Source: a virus
Virus record (IMG/VR): IMGVR_UViG_3300010430_000013
Span: 25,734 to 89,733 of that record
Length of the DNA stretch: 64,000 bases
Direction: 5' to 3' (one strand)
Shown: one piece after another, positions 10,786 to 35,221 of the stretch
How positions within the stretch are numbered: the stretch's first letter is position 1
Layout: each line of letters starts with the position of its first letter
Translations under genes and position numbers: made by a program
The notes under the pieces: generated by a model
The model's database searches: none
The model's input: the letters and a program-made list of their open reading frames with translations, nothing else
What the model was told of the DNA's origin: nothing

Positions 10786-13782
10786 ATGGAAAACAATCTT
10801 CCCACCCCTTACCAAGAGTTCATTCATCTTTCACGTTACGCTCGATGGCTTCCAGAAGAAAAAAGACGAGAGACTTGGGAAGAAACGGTTGATAGATTAG
10901 TTAACTTCTTTGAAGAGCACCTTAAGGAAAACTTTGACTTTGAGTTAGGCAAGGCAAAAAACCGCCTCCGCAAAGGAATCTTGAATCTTCAGGTTGTTCC
11001 AAGCATGAGGGCGCTTTGGGCTGCTGGTCCCGCTGCATCACGCGATAATGTGGCATGTTACAACTGTTCAGCTTTGCCTATCGACAAGCCCGCATCTTTT
11101 GATGAATTATTTTATATTTTAATGAATGGCTGTGGCGTCGGATTCTCAGTTGAACGACAGTTTATCAACAAGCTTCCTGAGGTGTCTGATAGCTTCCATG
11201 AGTCCGATACAACCATCGTGGTGAGTGATAGCACCATCGGCTGGTGCAAGGCGTTAAAAGAGCTTATAGGCATGCTCTACGTGGGGCAGGTTCCAAGATG
11301 GGATCTATCGAAGATTCGCCCTGCCGGAACTCCACTTAAAACCAAAGGCGGTCGAGCTTCTGGTGGCGAAATTCTCGGTCAACTGTTTGACTTTGTTGTA
11401 GTTACCTTTAAGGGTGCATCGGGCCGAAAGCTAAACTCTCTTGAGTGTCACGATATCTGCTGCAAAATTGCTGAAATCGTAACCGTCGGAGGTTGTCGCC
11501 GTTCAGCTTTGCTGAGTTTGTCCAATTTGTCAGATTTACGCATGAGAGAAGCAAAAGTTGGGCGTTGGTGGGAAGAAAGCGCTCAACGTGCAATGGCAAA
11601 CAACAGTGTGGCTTACACAGAAAAGCCAGATATGGGCATCTTTATGGAAGAATGGAAGTCCCTCTATGACAGTAAATCTGGCGAGAGAGGTATCTTTAAT
11701 CGGGAGTCTTGCAAAAAAATTATCGAAAAGATTGGTCGCAGGGATACTGATTTTGAGTTTTTAACTAATCCGTGTGTCACATCTGATACATGGATTGATA
11801 CTTCCGAAGGTCCGATTCAAGCATTCAATCTGATCAACAAGCCATTTCTGGCAACAGTAAATGGAAAAAATTATGAATGTAAAACAGGTTTCTTTAAAAC
11901 GGGACATAAAGATGTTTACGAAATCGAAACCTCTCGCGGATACTCAATTAAATGCACCTCTGACCACAAAATCTTAACAATTAAAGAAGGTCAAGAGCTT
12001 TGGGTTGAGGCGCAACATCTAGACGAGAGTTCAAATATCTGTATTAATCAGCTTGTTCATCAGGATGATTACGATTTGGATTTGAATGAATTTCATCAAG
12101 GTTGGCTAATGGGGGAAGTAGCTGGAGACGGCGGTCACAATCCTGAAAAATATCCTTCGTATGTCAGATTCTGGGGACATAATCGACATCAAATGTCGTC
12201 TATGGCTCACGATTTCGTTAAAGATTTGCCTTATGATTCGCACAGGCCAACAGCGCTTGCTGATGATCCCACTGACAACGGAACTTATAGTCAATCGGCC
12301 AGCAGAGCGCTTGACGAGCTACTGGAGGGCATGCTTGAGCCAGAAACCAAGAATATCCTGCCAGCCCTAGAGGGGGCGTCAGACTCTACTGTGAGAGGCT
12401 TCTTGAGGGGCATTTTTGATGCTGATGGAACCGTGCTTTTTAATAAAGAGAAGGGGCGCTCAGTAAGGCTTGGTCAGAACAATTTAGACCGACTTAAGTC
12501 AGTTCAGAGAATGCTGCATCGTTTTGGTATTGAGTCTTCGGTTTATCAAAATCGAAAACCTGAAGGTTATTACGAAATGCCTGACGGAAAAGGAGGTAAT
12601 AAAGAATACTTCTGTAAGGCTATGCATGAACTGGCTATCTCTCGTGAAAACATTTGCAAGTTTGCAGAATTAATTAATTTTTATGATGCTGACAAAAAAA
12701 CAAAACTAACTGAGTGCATTGATTCGTTAAGTCGAACTCCGTATAAAGACAAAATGACCACGAATTTCGTGTCTCGTCGTCATATCGGTCAGCAAGACGT
12801 TTATGATTGCACAGTGGATGAAGTGCATCGGTTTGGAGCGAATGGAATTATTATTCATAATTGTAGCGAAATATTACTCAGACCTCGTGGATTCTGTAAC
12901 CTCTCAGAAGTAATCCTTAGGGAGGATGATACAGAAGAAACAATCCTTGAAAAGATTGAACTAGCAACAATTCTTGGAACCATCCAAAGCACCTTTACTA
13001 ATTTTCGCTATCTTAGCAAAAACTGGAAGAAGAACGCAGACGAAGAGCGACTGCTTGGTGTTTCGATGACTGGAATTATGGACTGTCCTCTTACGAATGA
13101 TTCCGTAGAAGGTCTTGAAGGAAGGTTAGAGAGATTCAAAGAAAGGGCCATTGAAGTAAATAAAAAATGGGCAAAGTCTATTGGTATTAATCAGTCTGCT
13201 GCTATTACCTGCGTTAAACCGTCAGGCAATACTTCACAGCTTTGCGACACTGCAAGTGGAATTCATACTCGTCACTCTCCTTACTACATCAGAACGGTTA
13301 GGTCTGACAAAAAAGACCCGCTAACCAAACTAATGATTGATAAGGGGTTTCCATATGAGGACGAAATTAACAATCCTCAAAATATTGCAGTGTTTAGTTT
13401 TCCAATTAAAGCTCCTGAGCAATCGTTTTTTAGAAATGATAAGACCGCTCTTGAGCAGCTAGAGCTTTGGAAGAAGTATCAGTTGCATTACTGTGAGCAT
13501 AAGCCATCTATTACGGTTTCGGTAAAAGAAGACGAATGGCTTGAGGTTGGTGCCTGGGTTTATAAAAACTTTGATTTGATGAGCGGCGTTTCTTTCTTGC
13601 CGTTCAGTGATCATGTCTATAAGCAAGCGCCTTATCAGGATTGCACTAAAGAACAATACGAAGAGCTTTTGGCAAAGATGCCGAAAACTATTGACTGGTC
13701 TGAACTATCTGCTTACGAGTCCTCGGATATGACTACCGGAGCACGAGAATTAGCATGTACTGCTGGAGGCTGCGAAATTTGA
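10786..13782 (+). CDS. nrdJ: class II (B12-dependent) ribonucleotide reductase with intein
   Basis: SRYARW, RETWEETVDR, PSMRAL, YNCS, GGCRRSA, NPC/CSEI, FCNLSE, TCVKPSG, C-terminal LACTAGGCEI; no nrdB/nrdF small subunit adjacent. Confidence 0.92.
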   Translation: MENNLPTPYQEFIHLSRYARWLPEEKRRETWEETVDRLVNFFEEHLKENFDFELGKAKNRLRKGILNLQVVPSMRALWAAGPAASRDNVACYNCSALPIDKPASFDELFYILMNGCGVGFSVERQFINKLPEVSDSFHESDTTIVVSDSTIGWCKALKELIGMLYVGQVPRWDLSKIRPAGTPLKTKGGRASGGEILGQLFDFVVVTFKGASGRKLNSLECHDICCKIAEIVTVGGCRRSALLSLSNLSDLRMREAKVGRWWEESAQRAMANNSVAYTEKPDMGIFMEEWKSLYDSKSGERGIFNRESCKKIIEKIGRRDTDFEFLTNPCVTSDTWIDTSEGPIQAFNLINKPFLATVNGKNYECKTGFFKTGHKDVYEIETSRGYSIKCTSDHKILTIKEGQELWVEAQHLDESSNICINQLVHQDDYDLDLNEFHQGWLMGEVAGDGGHNPEKYPSYVRFWGHNRHQMSSMAHDFVKDLPYDSHRPTALADDPTDNGTYSQSASRALDELLEGMLEPETKNILPALEGASDSTVRGFLRGIFDADGTVLFNKEKGRSVRLGQNNLDRLKSVQRMLHRFGIESSVYQNRKPEGYYEMPDGKGGNKEYFCKAMHELAISRENICKFAELINFYDADKKTKLTECIDSLSRTPYKDKMTTNFVSRRHIGQQDVYDCTVDEVHRFGANGIIIHNCSEILLRPRGFCNLSEVILREDDTEETILEKIELATILGTIQSTFTNFRYLSKNWKKNADEERLLGVSMTGIMDCPLTNDSVEGLEGRLERFKERAIEVNKKWAKSIGINQSAAITCVKPSGNTSQLCDTASGIHTRHSPYYIRTVRSDKKDPLTKLMIDKGFPYEDEINNPQNIAVFSFPIKAPEQSFFRNDKTALEQLELWKKYQLHYCEHKPSITVSVKEDEWLEVGAWVYKNFDLMSGVSFLPFSDHVYKQAPYQDCTKEQYEELLAKMPKTIDWSELSAYESSDMTTGARELACTAGGCEI
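11773..12861 (+). mobile_element. intein with LAGLIDADG homing endonuclease (363 aa) at the active-site Cys of NrdJ
   Basis: NP|CVTSDT...TSDHK...GEVAGDG...LRGIFDADG...VYDCTV...IIHN|CSE. Confidence 0.95.
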
Positions 13783-28718: not shown

Positions 28719-29099
28719 ATGGCTAACTCTTACAATCACTCGGTTCTGGTCGGCAACGTTGTTCGTGATACGGAAATTCGCGATGCCGGAAAGTCTAAGG
28801 TAGCAGACAATGCTATCGCCATTACGGAGACTTTCGGGGAAAAGGAAGTAACAACATTTGTTGACATTACTCTTTGGGGACGAAATGCTGAAACGTTTCA
28901 GAAGTTCTGCCCTAAAGGTCGCACGGTCTTGATTGAAGGCTCTCTTCGTCAAGACAAGTGGACAGACAACGACGGCAACAAACGTTCTAAAATGTTTGTT
29001 AATGTCGACCGATTTGTTCTTTTAGGCTCAAAGCCTGGCGGTGGTCAGCAGCAGGAAACTGTTGCGGCAGGAGCAGGCTCGGATGATCTCCCCTTCTAA
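28719..29099 (+). CDS. ssb: single-stranded DNA-binding protein
   Basis: LVGNVVRD, KGRTVLIEGSL, DDLPF tail. Confidence 0.95.
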   Translation: MANSYNHSVLVGNVVRDTEIRDAGKSKVADNAIAITETFGEKEVTTFVDITLWGRNAETFQKFCPKGRTVLIEGSLRQDKWTDNDGNKRSKMFVNVDRFVLLGSKPGGGQQQETVAAGAGSDDLPF

Positions 29100-29130
29100 G
29101 CCTCCCTCTCGCTTAGAAGGCACTTCGATG

Positions 29131-29164
29131 CGCCTGCGTGCTCGTAGCACGCAGGCGTTTTTTA
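29131..29164 (+). terminator. intrinsic terminator after ssb
   Basis: 12-bp stem CGCCTGCGTGCT/AGCACGCAGGCG followed by a T-run. Confidence 0.85.
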
Positions 29165-29181
29165 TTCTTTTGGAGTTGTTT

Positions 29182-30687
29182 ATGTATCACCCCGGCGTAA
29201 TGACTCACGGCTCTGTTTTGCAAAGTGCAGTACACCCGGAGCATATTCAGGATTTTATCAATAATTCTGACTACTCCATGCTGCCAATCCTTGACTGGAA
29301 TCTTAGTCAGGCTTACCCGTATATAGACTCGACCGAACAACCTGTAATCGGTCTATTGAAAAACTTTACACAAGATAATGTTGAGATAACCTGCGCCCTC
29401 TATGCCCTCAATCGAAAGGGGTTTGGCGAGCTGCTCAGAATATCCAACGGGCTCCCAATTGCGGATAATTGCAAGAATATTGCAGCACTCTCGCCGGAAG
29501 CTTTAAATATCCCGGATCTTGAAGATATTGACCTGCATATCAAGACATTCAATCCTATAGCCCCAGCGCTCGTTCTAAGGGACTCTCAGCTTGATCACCA
29601 TAAGGTACTCATTAACAAAGCAAAAGGCGAATACGACGCGCCTGTGCCCCTAGAAAACGATGTTACCGATTGGTCTTGTTTAGCGCCGCTTTATGAGGCC
29701 GTAGAGAAATACAGTTTGGACAACAATCCTAGGCTTCCTCACTTTCCAACGGGAGACAAAACTGAAGACGAATTTCTCCGCGAACTCTGCGTTAAATCCT
29801 TAAAAGATAAAAATTTAGAGAGTGAAATATACCTTAGCCGTTTAAATTATGAGCTACAGACGTTCGAAAACGCCGGAATGAGTGGTTATTTCCTAATTAT
29901 GTGGGATATTTGCCGCTTTATTCAGGAGAGTGGCTCTATGTTGGGGGCTGGTCGTGGGTCTGCTGCGGGTTGTTTAGCGAGTTATCTGCTGGGCGTTACT
30001 AAAGTTGACCCGATTAAGTACGACCTAATCTTCGAAAGATTCTATAATCCTGACCGAAAGGGCGTACCCGATATCGATTGCGACATTGTGCCGGAATTTA
30101 GACCTAAAGTTATTGATTATTTAAGAGACAAGTATGGTTCCGAGAAAGTTGCACAGCTTTGCACTTACACTACTTTTAAAGGTCGAGGAGCCCTCAAAGA
30201 AACCCTAAAGCAACACGGAATGTCGCACGCAGAGGCAAATAAGGTAACTGAATGCCTTCATGAAGAATCTAAAATTGATCCACAGCTCAAAGACCAGTAT
30301 AATTCATTAGGGACTAAAAGTGTGCTTCTGTACACTTTAATGCATAGTCGAAGACTCGATTTCTGGTGTAAATTTAATAGGAAGACAAGTAAATACACTG
30401 GTAAGTGGGCGGATGCCTTCAAACTGGCAGTTGAGATGGACAGAACTAATATTGCAATTGGCAAACACGCTTCGGCTTTTATTCTGTCAGATAGAAATTT
30501 GCTAGATCAGTGTCCTGTTATACCAGATCCGGCCAACGGGCCTCACCCAGTTTGTGGCTGGGAAATGAATGCGGCAGAAAGATCAGGTTTGGTTAAGTTG
30601 GATTTGTTGGGACTGGACTGCTTGTCTAAATACCAAAGAAGCAGAGAAGTCATATCTAGTAAATCAATCTACTTGGAGGCCATATAA
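29182..30687 (+). CDS. dnaE: DNA polymerase III alpha, N-terminal half (degenerate PHP + catalytic palm)
   Basis: GYFLIMWD, GRGSAAGCL, FERFYNPDR, PDIDCD, GKHASA, LVKLDLLGL. Confidence 0.93.
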   Translation: MYHPGVMTHGSVLQSAVHPEHIQDFINNSDYSMLPILDWNLSQAYPYIDSTEQPVIGLLKNFTQDNVEITCALYALNRKGFGELLRISNGLPIADNCKNIAALSPEALNIPDLEDIDLHIKTFNPIAPALVLRDSQLDHHKVLINKAKGEYDAPVPLENDVTDWSCLAPLYEAVEKYSLDNNPRLPHFPTGDKTEDEFLRELCVKSLKDKNLESEIYLSRLNYELQTFENAGMSGYFLIMWDICRFIQESGSMLGAGRGSAAGCLASYLLGVTKVDPIKYDLIFERFYNPDRKGVPDIDCDIVPEFRPKVIDYLRDKYGSEKVAQLCTYTTFKGRGALKETLKQHGMSHAEANKVTECLHEESKIDPQLKDQYNSLGTKSVLLYTLMHSRRLDFWCKFNRKTSKYTGKWADAFKLAVEMDRTNIAIGKHASAFILSDRNLLDQCPVIPDPANGPHPVCGWEMNAAERSGLVKLDLLGLDCLSKYQRSREVISSKSIYLEAI

Positions 30688-30928
30688 TGGCAGATTCTAT
30701 TACATATGGTCAGTTGACGGTTGGCCAGAAATATACTCTCGTTAATGGAGAGGACACAGATACAATTTGGCTTAAAATCAAAACTCAAACAAAAGGCTGC
30801 TGCCGTAATCGAAAGGTTGTGGCGAATGCTCGTAATTCTGTGGATGCTACTAAAACAGCAATCCATAAACCAAGCGATAAGGTCGTGGTTGTCGGTTAAT
30901 CAATAAAAGATAAATTGATTCTTTTTTG

Positions 30929-30968
30929 AACCCGCTGACTGACCTATAGGCTTTTGGCGGGTTTTTTT
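30929..30968 (+). terminator. intrinsic terminator
   Basis: AACCCGC...GCGGGTT stem followed by a T-run. Confidence 0.7.
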
Positions 30969-30990
30969 ACTTCTTAAATAAGGATTTATT

Positions 30991-31194
30991 ATGGCTAGAT
31001 TTGACTGGGTTCCTTTTGGTGAGCAATTCCGATTTGAGGGGGATATGTTCAAAAAGATAGATTTCGATACCGCTGAGAATATGTTCACAGGCGACTTTCA
31101 GCGTTTTGACTCGATGCAGCAAGTAGAGTACGAAGACTACGAAGAAGAAGCGATGGACGTATTCGCGCTTGATGACGATAACTTGGACTGGTAA
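30991..31194 (+). CDS. acidic hypothetical protein
   Basis: RBS AAGGA; very acidic C-terminus. Confidence 0.65.
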   Translation: MARFDWVPFGEQFRFEGDMFKKIDFDTAENMFTGDFQRFDSMQQVEYEDYEEEAMDVFALDDDNLDW

Positions 31195-31198
31195 TCTT

Positions 31199-31990
31199 AT
31201 GAAGAAAGTATGCGGCAAGTGCAAGACAGAGAAGCTCACGGAGGAGTTTTACAAAAATAAGTCAACGAAAGACGGCTATGCTGGTTGTTGCAAGTCTTGC
31301 CACACGTCATACTTAGACGCATACAAACAAAGAAATATAAAGATACCAGAAGAAAAAACTTGTTATAAATGTAAAAAGACAAAATCCAAAGACTGCTTTA
31401 GTAAAATGAAGCAAGCTAAGGACGGCTTACAGCAATCATGCAAAGAGTGTTGTAAAAAATACAAAGAGTCTCTAAAGAATAGAGAAGATAAAGCTGAATC
31501 AAAAGCATGCCCAAGTTGTAAGGTTCTTTTAAGTTCTTCCGAATTTAATTCTTTTTGTTATAGCGCTGACGGACTTTCTGTCTATTGTAAAGAGTGTACA
31601 AAAAAGAAAAAAACAGAATATCTTCCAGTAAGACGAAAAAGGAAAAAATTTAGATATGATAATGACGTTCAATACAAAATAAAAGACTCCTTAAGAAAAA
31701 GAATTCGCGTTGCCCTTAAAGGTAAAGCAAAATCAAAAGCCACAATAGCTCTTTTGGGGTGCTCCGTAGATTTTTTAAAAACATATCTAGAAAATAAATT
31801 TGAATCTGGAATGACGTGGGAGAATTACGGAATTGATGGTTGGCACATAGATCATATAATTCCTTGTTCTGCATTCGACTTAACTGATCCAGAGCAACAA
31901 GGGCTTTGTTTTCATTACACGAACCTTCAGCCTTTATGGGCTGAGGACAACATTAAAAAAAGCAACTCACTGAATTGGAGAAAAAGATGA
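31199..31990 (+). CDS. HNH-type homing endonuclease with three Zn-ribbon repeats
   Basis: 3x KxCxxC...DG...CKxC; WHIDHIIP...HYTNLQPLW..DNIKKSN. Confidence 0.85.
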   Translation: MKKVCGKCKTEKLTEEFYKNKSTKDGYAGCCKSCHTSYLDAYKQRNIKIPEEKTCYKCKKTKSKDCFSKMKQAKDGLQQSCKECCKKYKESLKNREDKAESKACPSCKVLLSSSEFNSFCYSADGLSVYCKECTKKKKTEYLPVRRKRKKFRYDNDVQYKIKDSLRKRIRVALKGKAKSKATIALLGCSVDFLKTYLENKFESGMTWENYGIDGWHIDHIIPCSAFDLTDPEQQGLCFHYTNLQPLWAEDNIKKSNSLNWRKR

Positions 31991-32688
31991 TTTTAGTTAC
32001 GGATTTGGAGACAATAGACTTAAATAAAAATAAGGTTTCTCATGAGACTGCAATTCCCGTACAACTTGCGGCCATCCCTCTGGATGAGAATTCTCTGGAG
32101 ATTATCGACGACCCTCTGTGTATGTGGATTAATCCTGGCGAAGAAATACTTAATTCACCGTCCTTTTATCAAGATTACTCAAATGTTTTGGCCTTTCATG
32201 AAAAAGCACAAGGTAAACCAAAAGAGGAACTTGTCGAACTCTGGCGCTCAGGATTGGCCACGAGAGACGCGATGAAAGAATTTAAGGATTACGTTAAGTC
32301 TTATACCAAGGGCTCAAAAAAAGCATATTTTGGAGGTATGAACGTCAGAAATTTCGACATACCTATTCTAGAGCGTTTAATCGACAAAGGCTGGCCCTTT
32401 GCTAAAGTTAAGACTTGGGATATTAGAGACGTTGCCCAAATGTGGTTCGAATATTCTCGCAACCCACCTAAGTTGAACGGTAGAGTCAGCTATAGCTTCG
32501 ACTCTTTGCGTCAATACTTTGATATGAGCACAGAGAATGCTCACGACGCCCTTGTTGACGTTAGGCAAGAAGCAGACCTGCTCAGAAGATTTTTACGACT
32601 TCAGAAGAACCTAATGACTTACGGTTATCAACACAGAGACCAAAAGGCATTTGCTTGGGCTAAAGTTCTTCATGGAGTTAAGTCTTGA
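31987..32688 (+). CDS. DEDDh 3'-5' exonuclease (DnaQ/epsilon-like)
   Basis: TDLET, NVRNFDIP, AHDALVD. Confidence 0.88.
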   Translation: MILVTDLETIDLNKNKVSHETAIPVQLAAIPLDENSLEIIDDPLCMWINPGEEILNSPSFYQDYSNVLAFHEKAQGKPKEELVELWRSGLATRDAMKEFKDYVKSYTKGSKKAYFGGMNVRNFDIPILERLIDKGWPFAKVKTWDIRDVAQMWFEYSRNPPKLNGRVSYSFDSLRQYFDMSTENAHDALVDVRQEADLLRRFLRLQKNLMTYGYQHRDQKAFAWAKVLHGVKS

Positions 32689-33281
32689 GCTTAGGCGATA
32701 AGATTAAAGCGCTAAGAAATAAAGGATATTCTTACAACGAAATAGCAAAAGAGCTTGGTTGCTCTAAAGGCACTGTTTCGTATCATTGTGGAGAGGGTCA
32801 AAAGGATAAGGCAGAAGCCAGAAGAAAAAAACGAAGGAAAGAAAAGCCTGTCGACAGAAAGGTTGAAAATTTTCATGCTGAGAGAACATCATCCTTTGAA
32901 CAATCTATTGTTAGAAATAATAACGAAAGAATTTCAGGGAAGATAGCGCTTTTTCATAGTTGTGGGAGTAGAATGAAAACTAAATATACACCAAGAACCT
33001 TCAGCGTGAGCGAAGCAAAAGAACTACTAGAAGAACGAGGAGTTTGTTATTTGACTGGAGATCCAATCGACCCAGAAGACAGTCAATCTTATCATTTTGA
33101 TCACATTAAGCCAAGGTCCGCAGGGGGAGAAAATACAATCGATAATTTAGGAATTTCTTCACCAGAGGCTAATTATGCCAAGGGAAGCATGGAATTTGAG
33201 GACTTCATAAAAATGTGTCATAAAATAGTGAAGAGATATCCTGATCCAGAAGACCCAAGACCAAAACACGAAAGGGGCTGA
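32685..33281 (+). CDS. HTH + HNH endonuclease
   Basis: GYSYNEIAKELGCSKGTVSYH; CYLTG, DHIKPRSAGGENTIDNL...ANYAKG. Confidence 0.85.
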   Translation: MSLGDKIKALRNKGYSYNEIAKELGCSKGTVSYHCGEGQKDKAEARRKKRRKEKPVDRKVENFHAERTSSFEQSIVRNNNERISGKIALFHSCGSRMKTKYTPRTFSVSEAKELLEERGVCYLTGDPIDPEDSQSYHFDHIKPRSAGGENTIDNLGISSPEANYAKGSMEFEDFIKMCHKIVKRYPDPEDPRPKHERG

Positions 33282-33409
33282 AATAGTTTCGATTCGAAGT
33301 CAAGTGATGCGTCTGCCGTGGGAGGCAAAAAGGTCTAACTGCACTAGCAAAAAAGCCTTGGCGTTATCAGCAGCTTTTGAAGACCTCGGGGCAGGACCGA
33401 GCAGCTCCA
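33274..33409 (+). ncRNA. ssrA: minimal tmRNA (ssrA-like)
   Basis: 5' GGGGCTGAAATAGTTTCGA; 3' AGAC-CTCGG-GGCAGGA-CCGAG-CAGCTCC-A; acceptor stem with G3.U alanine determinant. Confidence 0.8.
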
Positions 33410-33429
33410 CTTTTTTCAAAGGAGAAGCA

Positions 33430-33633
33430 ATGGGTGAATTTTTTGTAGAGGCCATTTTTGGCATGATAGTGTCTGCGGTTATTGTAACCGCGCTTGTTGT
33501 GGGAGGAGTTACGTTTGCCGTGACTTGGTATTTCAGTCAACCTCCTTCAGAAGCTCAAGTCTTAAAAGAAGGGCAACGACAACAAGTTATCGAAAAACTT
33601 ACACCTGAAGAACGAGAATTGCTGGGCGTTTAA
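33430..33633 (+). CDS. membrane protein
   Basis: RBS AGGAG; TM helix; KLTPEERELLG. Confidence 0.7.
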   Translation: MGEFFVEAIFGMIVSAVIVTALVVGGVTFAVTWYFSQPPSEAQVLKEGQRQQVIEKLTPEERELLGV

Positions 33634-33634
33634 T

Positions 33635-35221
33635 ATGATTTTTGATTGTGGGTGCGAATTTCACCAAACAGAAGACGGCGGCTGGACTTGGGACGACGAG
33701 AATATTAATTTTCAATGTCCAAAAGTTTGGAGGTTAATTTGTTCTGGCAATACGTCTGGCGTCTTTCAGCTGGACGCTATGCTGGGTCAACATTGGTCCA
33801 GGCAGGTCAAGCCAGAAAACATTAATGAATGGTCTGATCTTATTGCTATTATCCGTCCTGGTATGCTGGAAGCTATCGTGGACGGAAAGAGCCAGACTCA
33901 GCGCTATGTTGACAGAAAACACGGCAAAGAGAGTGTCGCGTTCGACCATCCAAAGCTAGAGGAGGTTCTAGGACCAACTCAAGCTACCATGCCGTTTCAA
34001 GAGCAAGCCATGAGAATCGCCACAGACTTGGCGGGGTTCACAATGGCCGAGTCGGATACTTACATTCGCAAGGGTATCGGCAAGAAGATTCCTGAGGTGA
34101 TTGCCAAAGCCAAGGAAATGTTCATCGAGGGATGCCTCAAGAATAATATCTCCAAAGAATTAGCCGAAAGAATCTTTACGTCTATCGAGGCTGCACAGCG
34201 ATATTCGTTCAATAGGTCACACAGTCTTAGTTACGCTCTGGATGGTTATATTTATTCAGCATATATCAAAGCGCATTTTCCGCTGGAGTTTCATTGCACA
34301 GAATTAGACTTTGCTAAGGGCAAGCAGCCTAAGACTGACCTTGAGGCCGTCTGTGACATCATCGAGGATGCCCTAAAGATGGACATCAAGGTTATGAAAC
34401 CCGACCTTAGATATTTAAATGAAAGATTTTCTATAGTTGACGGCACCATCCTTTACGGCTTAACTAAGATAAAGCATCTCGGTCCCGATAAAATTCGAGC
34501 ACTTCCAGAGCTGAAAGACGCTACTTACATAGAGCTTATCGCTGCCTTAGACAAAATAAACAAAACTTCCGCAGAAAACTTAATCAAAAGCGGGTCTTGT
34601 GATTGGATCAAAGCGCCTCGTTCTAAAATGTTGGCAGACTATGCGGCTTACTCCAAGCTAAATGTGCAGCAAAAAGAAGTTTGTGTAGAAGAATCTGACG
34701 TTCTTAAGGGAATTCAAAAAATTATAGAAATTGGGCCGTCCACCAAGAGCAAGCTGTGCTATAATAAAGTGTCGCTAAAAAAATTAAAGGAACTTGAGAA
34801 TCTCCTCGTGAATCCAATCCGACAGCCAAAAGACACCCCTCAAAAGATTATTGACTGGGAAAAGGAAACACTTGGGCGCTCATTTACTTTTGATGAGGCT
34901 TTGACTCGTTATTGGGATGGGAATTACAAAGAGTTGATTGATGTTAAGCATCATTCTGTCCCCCTAAAAGATCAATTCCTGTTGAGCGCGGTTCTCAGGG
35001 ACTTTAAAGAAATTTACACCAAGAAAAAACAAGAACCTATGGCTCGAATAACTGTTTACAGTTTAGATTGGGTCAGTGATGCGGTTATATTTCCTAGGGC
35101 TTGGGAATTGTGCAAGCATGCGATTGAATCTAATGTCGGCCAGCCGCTTTTATTCAAAGCCAGAATGAATTTCTACAACGAGCAATGGGGCCTAGTAATC
35201 GAGGAGATAGAAGATGTCTAG
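33635..35221 (+). CDS. dnaE: DNA polymerase III alpha, C-terminal half (fingers, HhH, OB)
   Basis: GNTSGVFQL, IRPG, FQEQAM, YSFNRSHS, AYIKAHFPLEF, YGLTKIKHLG, AVIFP. Confidence 0.93.
   Translation: MIFDCGCEFHQTEDGGWTWDDENINFQCPKVWRLICSGNTSGVFQLDAMLGQHWSRQVKPENINEWSDLIAIIRPGMLEAIVDGKSQTQRYVDRKHGKESVAFDHPKLEEVLGPTQATMPFQEQAMRIATDLAGFTMAESDTYIRKGIGKKIPEVIAKAKEMFIEGCLKNNISKELAERIFTSIEAAQRYSFNRSHSLSYALDGYIYSAYIKAHFPLEFHCTELDFAKGKQPKTDLEAVCDIIEDALKMDIKVMKPDLRYLNERFSIVDGTILYGLTKIKHLGPDKIRALPELKDATYIELIAALDKINKTSAENLIKSGSCDWIKAPRSKMLADYAAYSKLNVQQKEVCVEESDVLKGIQKIIEIGPSTKSKLCYNKVSLKKLKELENLLVNPIRQPKDTPQKIIDWEKETLGRSFTFDEALTRYWDGNYKELIDVKHHSVPLKDQFLLSAVLRDFKEIYTKKKQEPMARITVYSLDWVSDAVIFPRAWELCKHAIESNVGQPLLFKARMNFYNEQWGLVIEEIEDV

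Follow-up and report, generated by a model that had tools for sequence, protein, structure and literature searches.

Positions 33274–33409 (+) of the window, by which we mean the whole 64,000-nt stretch of DNA analysed here, are, judged by their sequence, the gene for a tag-less mini-transfer-messenger RNA (mini-tmRNA) of an uncultured marine phage. The predicted RNA is 136 nt long, has the standard, non-permuted order and joins a complete tRNA-like domain (TLD) to an interior that encodes no terminated tag. Phage tag-less mini-tmRNAs are an already known type, represented by that of phage DS6A, and the window element is a real but fairly ordinary new example. Distinctive here are its intermediate size, the combination of non-permuted order with a T loop of the alphaproteobacterial (alpha) type, its association with a homing endonuclease and an overlap with the stop codon of the endonuclease gene. 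The window comprises bases 25734–89733 of an 89,733-base IMG/VR virus record (IMGVR_UViG_3300010430_000013; CheckV completeness 59%); among public sequencing runs, near-complete cover of the stretch was found in one marine sediment metagenome only, probably the sample from which the record came.

The ends of the gene were placed by sequence, by end motifs unique in the window, by alignment with relatives and by a contig from another sample, described below, whose match ends exactly at 33409. The 5′ strand of the acceptor stem (GGGGCTG, 33274–33280) pairs with the 3′ strand CAGCTCC, which is followed by the discriminator base A73 at 33409 (33402–33409); G3 pairs with U70, and the stem is paired at 7/7 positions in 8/8 aligned relatives. 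The 7-bp acceptor stem, G3:U70 and A73 are the alanine identity elements of a tmRNA. The D-loop analogue, AAATAGTTTCGA (33281–33292), is invariant at 11 of its 12 positions in an alignment of eight sequences and lies within a 19-nt motif common to 18 viral loci. It leads into helix 2a, a 7-bp helix between TTCGAAG (33293–33299) and TTTTGAA (33375–33381), the second strand being followed by an invariant GAC (together 33375–33384); this helix, which appears in the minimum-free-energy (MFE) fold and is the best-covarying part of the element, had not been named in the initial annotation. The T arm (CTCGG-GGCAGGA-CCGAG, 33385–33401) has 5 bp and a 7-nt loop and is joined directly to the acceptor 3′ strand. 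GAC closes helix 2a on its 3′ side ahead of the T arm, and there is no anticodon arm, as is characteristic of a tmRNA TLD. The loop GGCAGGA is of the alpha type rather than TTCRANY, resembling the loops of permuted phage tmRNAs and the Rfam alpha_tmRNA consensus. No CCA is encoded, and CTTTTTT follows A73. This C and six T (33410–33416) might end transcription or form a 3′ trailer; a terminator scan made no call there.

Within helix 2a, the MFE fold places a further helix between TGATGCGTC (33305–33313, TGATG plus CGTC) and GGCGTTATCA (33360–33369, GGCG plus TATCA), enclosing 46 nt. The 5′ strand of this inner helix is placed by the MFE fold only, as is a small hairpin, TGCC-GTGGGA-GGCA (33314–33327). 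A stem AAGGT/GCCTT (33330–33359) follows in the same fold. The initial annotation had described the acceptor stem with its G3·U pair and A73, the T stem and its unusual loop, a helix-2-like pairing around about 45 nt and the absence of an encoded CCA, and each of these was recovered.

The TLD helices are supported by covariation among standard-order phage relatives. We aligned the window element with seven of them, found at loci that we designate by L numbers: L001 (226 nt), L015 (280 nt), L018 (282 nt), L011 (355 nt), L012 (397 nt), L005 (400 nt) and L016 (400 nt). Pairs were counted in the acceptor stem, helix 2a and the T stem (19 pairs). Standard pairs form in 99.3% of the 152 cells, and 10 of the 19 pairs change on both sides, 6/7 in helix 2a and 4/5 in the T stem. 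Helix 2a is 98.2% paired, and G3:U70 is kept as GU in 8/8 sequences. The acceptor stem is uninformative on covariation because it hardly varies. None of 500 shuffles reached any of the five observed measures, and sliding the 3′ partners by 1–3 columns cut pairing to 39–54%; these figures are to be read with the structure being derived from the same sequences and with three pairs of rows being close relatives. The covariation among phage relatives that the initial annotation had named as a check is therefore present, and together with homology it bears out the claim of a minimal tmRNA with a complete TLD.

The homology came from the two ends of the element. Its first 19 bases, GGGGCTGAAATAGNTTCGA, occur once in the 64 kb even when two mismatches are allowed (0.00 expected), and its last 28 bases, written as GAC-N5-GGCRGNA-N5-CAGCTCCA, occur once in the window (0.01 expected). 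A search of viral contigs with the 5′ motif returned 18 stretches, and in six of these the motif is the 5′ end of a tmRNA called by ARAGORN, permuted in L003, L004, L010 and L017 and of standard order in L011 and L012. Relaxed ARAGORN thresholds add L015, L018 and L016 among the loci with the motif. In the permuted tmRNAs of L003 and L004 the T stem CTCGG/CCGAG is identical to that of the window and the loop reads GGCGGTA; in L010 and L017 the loop is GGCAGTA, one base from GGCAGGA. On these grounds, and on the likeness of its T loop to the Rfam alpha_tmRNA consensus, we regard the element as homologous to the TLD of aquatic-phage tmRNAs with an alphaproteobacterial-type T loop.

Two-piece tmRNAs of the alphaproteobacterial type are described for marine phages (Melnitz and pelagimyophages; PMC9004378; Rfam RF01849 and RF04321). 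The permuted marine-phage tmRNAs share with the window element the 5′ motif GGGGCTGAAATAG.TTCGA, the acceptor stem and the same or nearly the same T arm. By contrast, they are circularly permuted, span ~420–430 nt in the ARAGORN calls and carry tags such as ANDNFAPQDFALAA, whereas the window element has standard order, 136 nt and no terminated tag. A two-piece tmRNA was accordingly rejected as an identity for the element, its 5′ acceptor strand lying upstream of the 3′ strand. An ordinary tRNA was rejected as well: the element has no cloverleaf with an anticodon arm, ARAGORN in tRNA mode finds no tRNA in the element even when relaxed to ps70, and the Rfam scans returned no match to RF00005 (tRNA) and none to RF02544 (mt-tmRNA).

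The standard-order relatives form a series of decreasing size, 400, 355, 280, 226 and 136 nt, which shows loss of the message and pseudoknots with retention of the TLD and helix 2a. The 400- and 355-nt members carry ordinary tags, the latter (L011) a terminated ANDNAYATPALAAA. The relatives in L015 (481–760) and L018 (3444–3725, −), 280–282 nt long, encode the tag GKCKNSYALAA; they are missed by ARAGORN at its default setting and called only at ps90. The 226-nt relative in L001 (476–701) lies between tRNA-Tyr and tRNA-Leu and has at most a short frame ending AQAA-stop, which Rfam aligned to the tag end of alpha_tmRNA; ARAGORN made no call there at any threshold. L001 has the identical T loop GGCAGGA with three compensatory changes in the T stem, and is the only other such sequence found. 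The window element, without any terminated tag, closes the series as its shortest member. L011, L015, L018 and L001 share with it the 5′ 19-mer, the acceptor stem, the covarying helix 2a and T stem, and the lack of an encoded CCA; these reduced relatives lie in tRNA clusters, whereas the record of the window has no tRNA genes. L005, L012 and L016 likewise lie among tRNA genes, with L001 and L011. The tmRNAs of L005 (6714–7113), L016 (7829–8228, −) and L012 (977–1376) are three near-identical phage tmRNAs of ~400 nt with an unusual predicted tag, DTTVVTLHPALLAVLGQRAVA. The T loop is the canonical TTCGATT in L012 and has 9 nt in L005 and L016 (GGGCAGTTC and GGGCGGTTC); the L005 tmRNA was missed by ARAGORN at every threshold tried.

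What sets the window element apart from a tmRNA is the message. Only 75 nt separate the two strands of helix 2a. The stem AAGGT/GCCTT carries in its loop a resume-like TAACT|GCA (GCA at 33341–33343); the frame that starts there, ALAKK..., crosses helix 2 and the T arm and reaches the 3′ end without a stop. The frame reading KKALALSAAF likewise has no stop before the 3′ end. In the third frame there are stops at TAA (33336–33338), TAG (33345–33347) and TGA, two of them lying within 10 nt of the resume-like site. The three-frame translation thus held no tag frame in which a resume codon is followed by an in-frame stop, in agreement with the initial annotation, and ARAGORN reported no tag in the element region at any threshold. 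Inside the inner helix, the MFE fold has only a 4-bp hairpin and a 5-bp stem–loop; no loop complement for pseudoknot 1 was seen by eye, and the fold tools used do not predict pseudoknots. Local alignment of the 75-nt interior with the interiors of 12 family members gave no significant similarity. The sequence TGCACTAGC in the loop was considered as what is left of an ...ALAA tag end, such as those of L007 and L017; this was rejected, as 9-nt matches of similar quality arise in 12–16 of 200 shuffles. The element thus has the TLD features of a tmRNA and lacks its message. Selection confined to the TLD would be expected to leave such a pattern, an intact TLD around an unrecognisable interior.

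These features bear on whether the RNA might still rescue ribosomes. In principle, the alanyl-mini-tmRNA could take over the stalled peptide, the ribosome being freed by the third-frame stop, by drop-off or by an alternative rescue factor; phage proteins would then be released with a few residues at most and would escape degradation. The resume-like TAACT|GCA, with two stops no more than 10 nt away in another frame, is compatible with such tag-free rescue, and there are precedents in print: 2-residue tags are described for 25 bacterial sequences, and tag-less tmRNAs are described for mitochondria and two plastids (~65-bp genes), conserved together with SmpB (PMC11915505). The organellar RNAs resemble the window element in having a TLD without a tag frame but, compared by their description, are mostly permuted or far shorter. 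Against rescue of this kind, the GCA frame has no stop before the 3′ end, inspection by eye turned up no pseudoknot 1 and the likeness of the loop to the tag ends of relatives is not significant. We consider it improbable.

The reading we favour, and to which we give an even chance, is that the mini-tmRNA is a functional TLD-only tmRNA that competes with the host tmRNA for SmpB and alanyl-tRNA synthetase (AlaRS), by analogy with the account published for DS6A. That phage encodes a ‘TLD only’ tmRNA devoid of a coding sequence (CDS) (tmRNA Website tmID 11587; Hudson, Lau & Williams 2014, PMC4131195; PMC11915505), and a molecule similar to it is described as strongly inhibiting tmRNA, perhaps by titration of SmpB (Mao et al. 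2009, as cited in PMC4131195 and PMC11915505). We read the DS6A element at JN698994 28479–28558 (our L207): it has 80 nt, G3:U, A73, the T loop TTCGATT and no encoded CCA. Both RNAs are phage-encoded and of standard order, with a G3:U and A73 acceptor, an adjoining T arm, no tag frame and no CCA, and the window element has the combination that defines the DS6A type, namely an intact TLD without a tag CDS in a phage genome. Both lie just upstream of a gene for a DnaE-type polymerase (in DS6A gp34, annotated as DNA polymerase III), which is probably a coincidence.

The two also differ. The DS6A RNA has ~20 nt inside a short helix 2, whereas in the window RNA the 7-bp helix 2a is followed inwards by another helix, of 9 bp, which encloses 46 nt; it is longer because helix 2 and the 46-nt loop region are kept. 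At 136 nt it is an intermediate, longer form rather than ‘little more than the TLD’, as the 80 nt of DS6A are. Comparing the sequences by reading them, we found TTCGATT and a different D-loop analogue in DS6A as against GGCAGGA in the window. The T loops and tmRNA lineages being different, the two reductions are independent.

On this competitor reading, the mini-tmRNA would have derived from the aquatic-phage tmRNA lineage with the alphaproteobacterial-type T loop. It would be co-transcribed on the + strand with the HNH endonuclease gene upstream, cut by RNase P at G1 and trimmed at its 3′ end, and host enzymes would add CCA. Host AlaRS would charge it with alanine and host SmpB would bind it; any SmpB partner must be the host's, since the phage record has no SmpB gene. 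In competition with the tmRNA of the host, the charged RNA could then engage SmpB, EF-Tu and stalled ribosomes, with less tagging and degradation of unfinished proteins during infection as the outcome. We favour a competitor over full trans-translation because a ribosome switched onto the mini-tmRNA could not terminate.

The element is retained in diverged strains. We compared contigs from four other runs (X2, X3, X4 and X6) over 32400–34100. Run X2, a marine metagenome of another study, has a 348-nt contig over 33065–33412, with seven differences in 33065–33206 and none in 33207–33412, so the element is identical in it. In run X3, a 10,369-nt contig matches 32400–33409 with 72 differences (~7%) and keeps both the HNH gene and the element. 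Its match breaks exactly after 33409, the predicted discriminator base, and resumes at 33635, with 20 other letters between. The X3 strain is without the T run and the 67-aa open reading frame (ORF) that follow the element in the window (33410–33634), and a loose end in X4, from the same study, agrees with this. The X6 contig covers only 33713–33894, outside the element.

Several results weigh against a functional mini-tmRNA. Neither of the tools named in the initial annotation as a check detected it: ARAGORN returned nothing on the window, on the whole 89.7-kb record or, at relaxed thresholds, on the region, and Rfam gave no match at gathering score, with RF00023 likewise finding nothing in the phage's own genome. 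In E-value mode, only the T arm and acceptor matched RF04321 (tmRNA_permuted) and RF01849 (alpha_tmRNA), at 13 and 9 bits (E ~1–2), alongside two chance matches, to a snoRNA and a lncRNA. The folding energy does not exceed chance relative to shuffles for the whole element (MFE z = −0.88) or its interior (z = −1.17). Of the matches to wider T-loop patterns, 1 of 60 from viral contigs was real (L001), as against none of 4 from metagenome contigs and none of 42 from genome contigs. The 89.7-kb record has no SmpB gene, a promoter and terminator scan made no call at the element, and no RNA run is listed with this stretch among public sequencing runs, which is no evidence either way. The perfect conservation in X2 rests on seven differences: had these been spread evenly, the chance of none in the 139 nt from 33274 would be ~0.03. 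For X3, positions are listed for only 40 of the 130 differing places. Finally, the element is not a conserved feature of this phage group and may be a passenger of the HNH cassette.

The last point follows from the genomic setting. Upstream, the mini-tmRNA adjoins an ORF of 198 aa (32685–33281, +) with Pfam HTH and HNH domains, a homing endonuclease. Downstream lies a 67-aa ORF (33430–33633, +) that has a hydrophobic stretch, a good ribosome-binding site before its start (AAAGGAG), no Pfam family and no homologue in 80 related loci; it forms part of the insertion that holds the element, and the X3/X4 variant lacks it. The mini-tmRNA fills most of the gap between the two ORFs, in a stretch where every gene is on the + strand and gaps are short. 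The surroundings are a dnaE gene split in two by a DnaQ-like exonuclease gene (window 29041–35221; related loci L082–L161). In 80 viral loci found by a profile search as carrying a related dnaE_C, the order dnaE_N–exo–dnaE_C–glycosyltransferase recurs, the four genes being found in 76, 71, 80 and 68 loci, respectively, and exo ends no more than ~100 nt from dnaE_C in most of the 40 loci listed. With the gene order so conserved, the dnaE split is a stable feature of a large group of uncultured phages. A single-protein search for dnaE_C relatives in viral contigs had found none; the best dnaE_C homologue is 40% identical and that of the best isolated phage ~26%. The phage of L001 has an unsplit DnaE, 28% identical. 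Window proteins have no homologue in the 18 loci with the 5′ motif (126.8 kb in all), and blastn of 1.1 kb around the element against phage records gave no match.

Relative to this conserved order, the window has extra insertions: between dnaE_N and exo lie a 67-aa ORF and a first HNH gene (HNH1), and exo is followed, ahead of dnaE_C, by the HTH-HNH gene, the mini-tmRNA and the second 67-aa ORF. None of the 80 related loci has either HNH gene, the 67-aa ORF, a tRNA or a TLD-like element, as searched with ARAGORN and a structural regular expression; 32685–33633 is therefore a lineage-specific insertion. Three relatives of the HTH-HNH protein were found in viral contigs (L162 2914–3516; L163, L164 2828–3631; 39–43% identity), all in or beside tRNA clusters, those in L163 and L164 on the opposite strand between tRNA-Ser and tRNA-Asn. 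They look like a family of homing endonucleases of phage tRNA regions. Most simply, a tmRNA-type gene would have travelled with the endonuclease gene next to it to the site between exo and dnaE_C. Another mobile element is present in the replication and nucleotide-metabolism block of the window: the ORF for a 998-aa ribonucleotide reductase (10786–13782) contains an intein whose endonuclease domain is of the LAGLIDADG type (Pfam PF14890 and PF14528).

The same setting could be that of a decaying relic, a less likely account that we take seriously. A full-length phage tmRNA gene would have lost its message and pseudoknots by internal deletion, the HTH-HNH homing endonuclease would have brought the remnant to an ectopic site, and it would now be a passive, functionless rider beside the endonuclease gene. 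This accords with an insertion confined to one lineage together with a homing endonuclease, neither the HNH genes, the 67-aa ORF nor a tRNA-like gene occurring in any of the 80 related loci, and with the position of all three HNH relatives in tRNA clusters, from which the endonuclease could plausibly have picked up a neighbouring tRNA-like gene. The unrecognisable interior with no terminated frame points the same way, as do the lack of a listed RNA run and of any tRNA gene in the whole 89.7-kb record (ARAGORN). However, neutral decay should affect the interior and the TLD alike, and here the TLD is whole, with 19/19 pairs, G3:U70, A73, the D-loop analogue and GAC, around an interior that has diverged beyond recognition. 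A lineage with ~7% differences has moreover kept the element, X2 has it unchanged despite seven upstream coding differences, and a TLD-only form arose independently in DS6A.

The junction between the endonuclease gene and the element suggests a further alternative. The last 8 nt of the HTH-HNH ORF, including its stop TGA (33279–33281), lie inside the mini-tmRNA acceptor strand, the stop being nt 6–8 of the RNA. The tRNA-like structure might therefore be a cis-acting processing signal without function in trans: RNase P cutting at G1 would part the HNH message from the dnaE_C message and leave the endonuclease mRNA without a stop, so that its expression is limited. The end of the ORF at 33281, 8 nt into the acceptor strand, and the uniform + orientation with short gaps are in keeping with this. 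So is a published parallel in Carsonella, where the smpB CDS runs into the 5′ end of ssrA and maturation is predicted to give a non-stop mRNA, an arrangement reported there as found nowhere else (PMC4131195); the overlapping CDS is smpB in Carsonella and a homing endonuclease gene in the window. For a cleavage signal, however, an acceptor/T minihelix would suffice, leaving G3:U70, A73, the D-loop analogue, helix 2a and GAC unexplained, and the overlap of the HNH gene and the mini-tmRNA may be an accident of insertion. We think it unlikely that processing is all the element does.

A more elaborate scheme would make the mini-tmRNA and the HTH-HNH endonuclease one mobile, self-regulating unit. 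RNase P cutting at G1 would sever the endonuclease mRNA 5 nt before its stop, producing a non-stop message; the released mini-tmRNA would block or divert host tmRNA–SmpB; the RNA would thereby set the amount of endonuclease and whether its truncated product receives a degradation tag; and the endonuclease would spread the RNA gene to new phage genomes, here between exo and dnaE_C. That all of these steps hold jointly is a long shot.

The least probable of the alternatives makes the element part of a host tmRNA gene, carried as an attachment-site fragment by a phage that integrates into ssrA. Phages and islands are described as often integrating into ssrA and carrying its 3′ part (PMC9004378, PMC11915505), and L027 has what such a fragment might look like. 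At ~478–510 (−) this locus holds just a T arm and an acceptor strand, GAGGT-GGCAGGA-ACCTC-CAGCTCCACC; the 500 nt upstream contain no 5′ acceptor strand to match. The piece may have come, as an attachment-site fragment, from a tmRNA gene that shares the rare T loop of the window element. In the window, by contrast, the TLD has its 5′ half as well as its 3′ half, and the two pair. The 89.7-kb record has no tyrosine integrase, and none of 42 matches to the T loop GGCAGGA with the matching acceptor in species-representative bacterial genomes was real. The attachment-site reading is thus largely refuted.

The initial annotation had presented the element as unusual; in fact, tag-less tmRNAs are in print for one phage, for mitochondria and for two plastids. 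DS6A is the only phage RNA of this kind in print, and the independent origin of the window element from a lineage with the alpha-type T loop argues that reduction to the TLD has been selected repeatedly. Its link to a homing endonuclease adds a case of overlap between a CDS and a tmRNA gene, described before only for Carsonella smpB–ssrA. Because ARAGORN and Rfam miss genes of this kind, phage annotations undercount them. Short of a laboratory demonstration of function, none of this alters how trans-translation is understood; tag-less tmRNAs do suggest that phages interfere with, rather than supply, ribosome rescue and protein tagging in their hosts.

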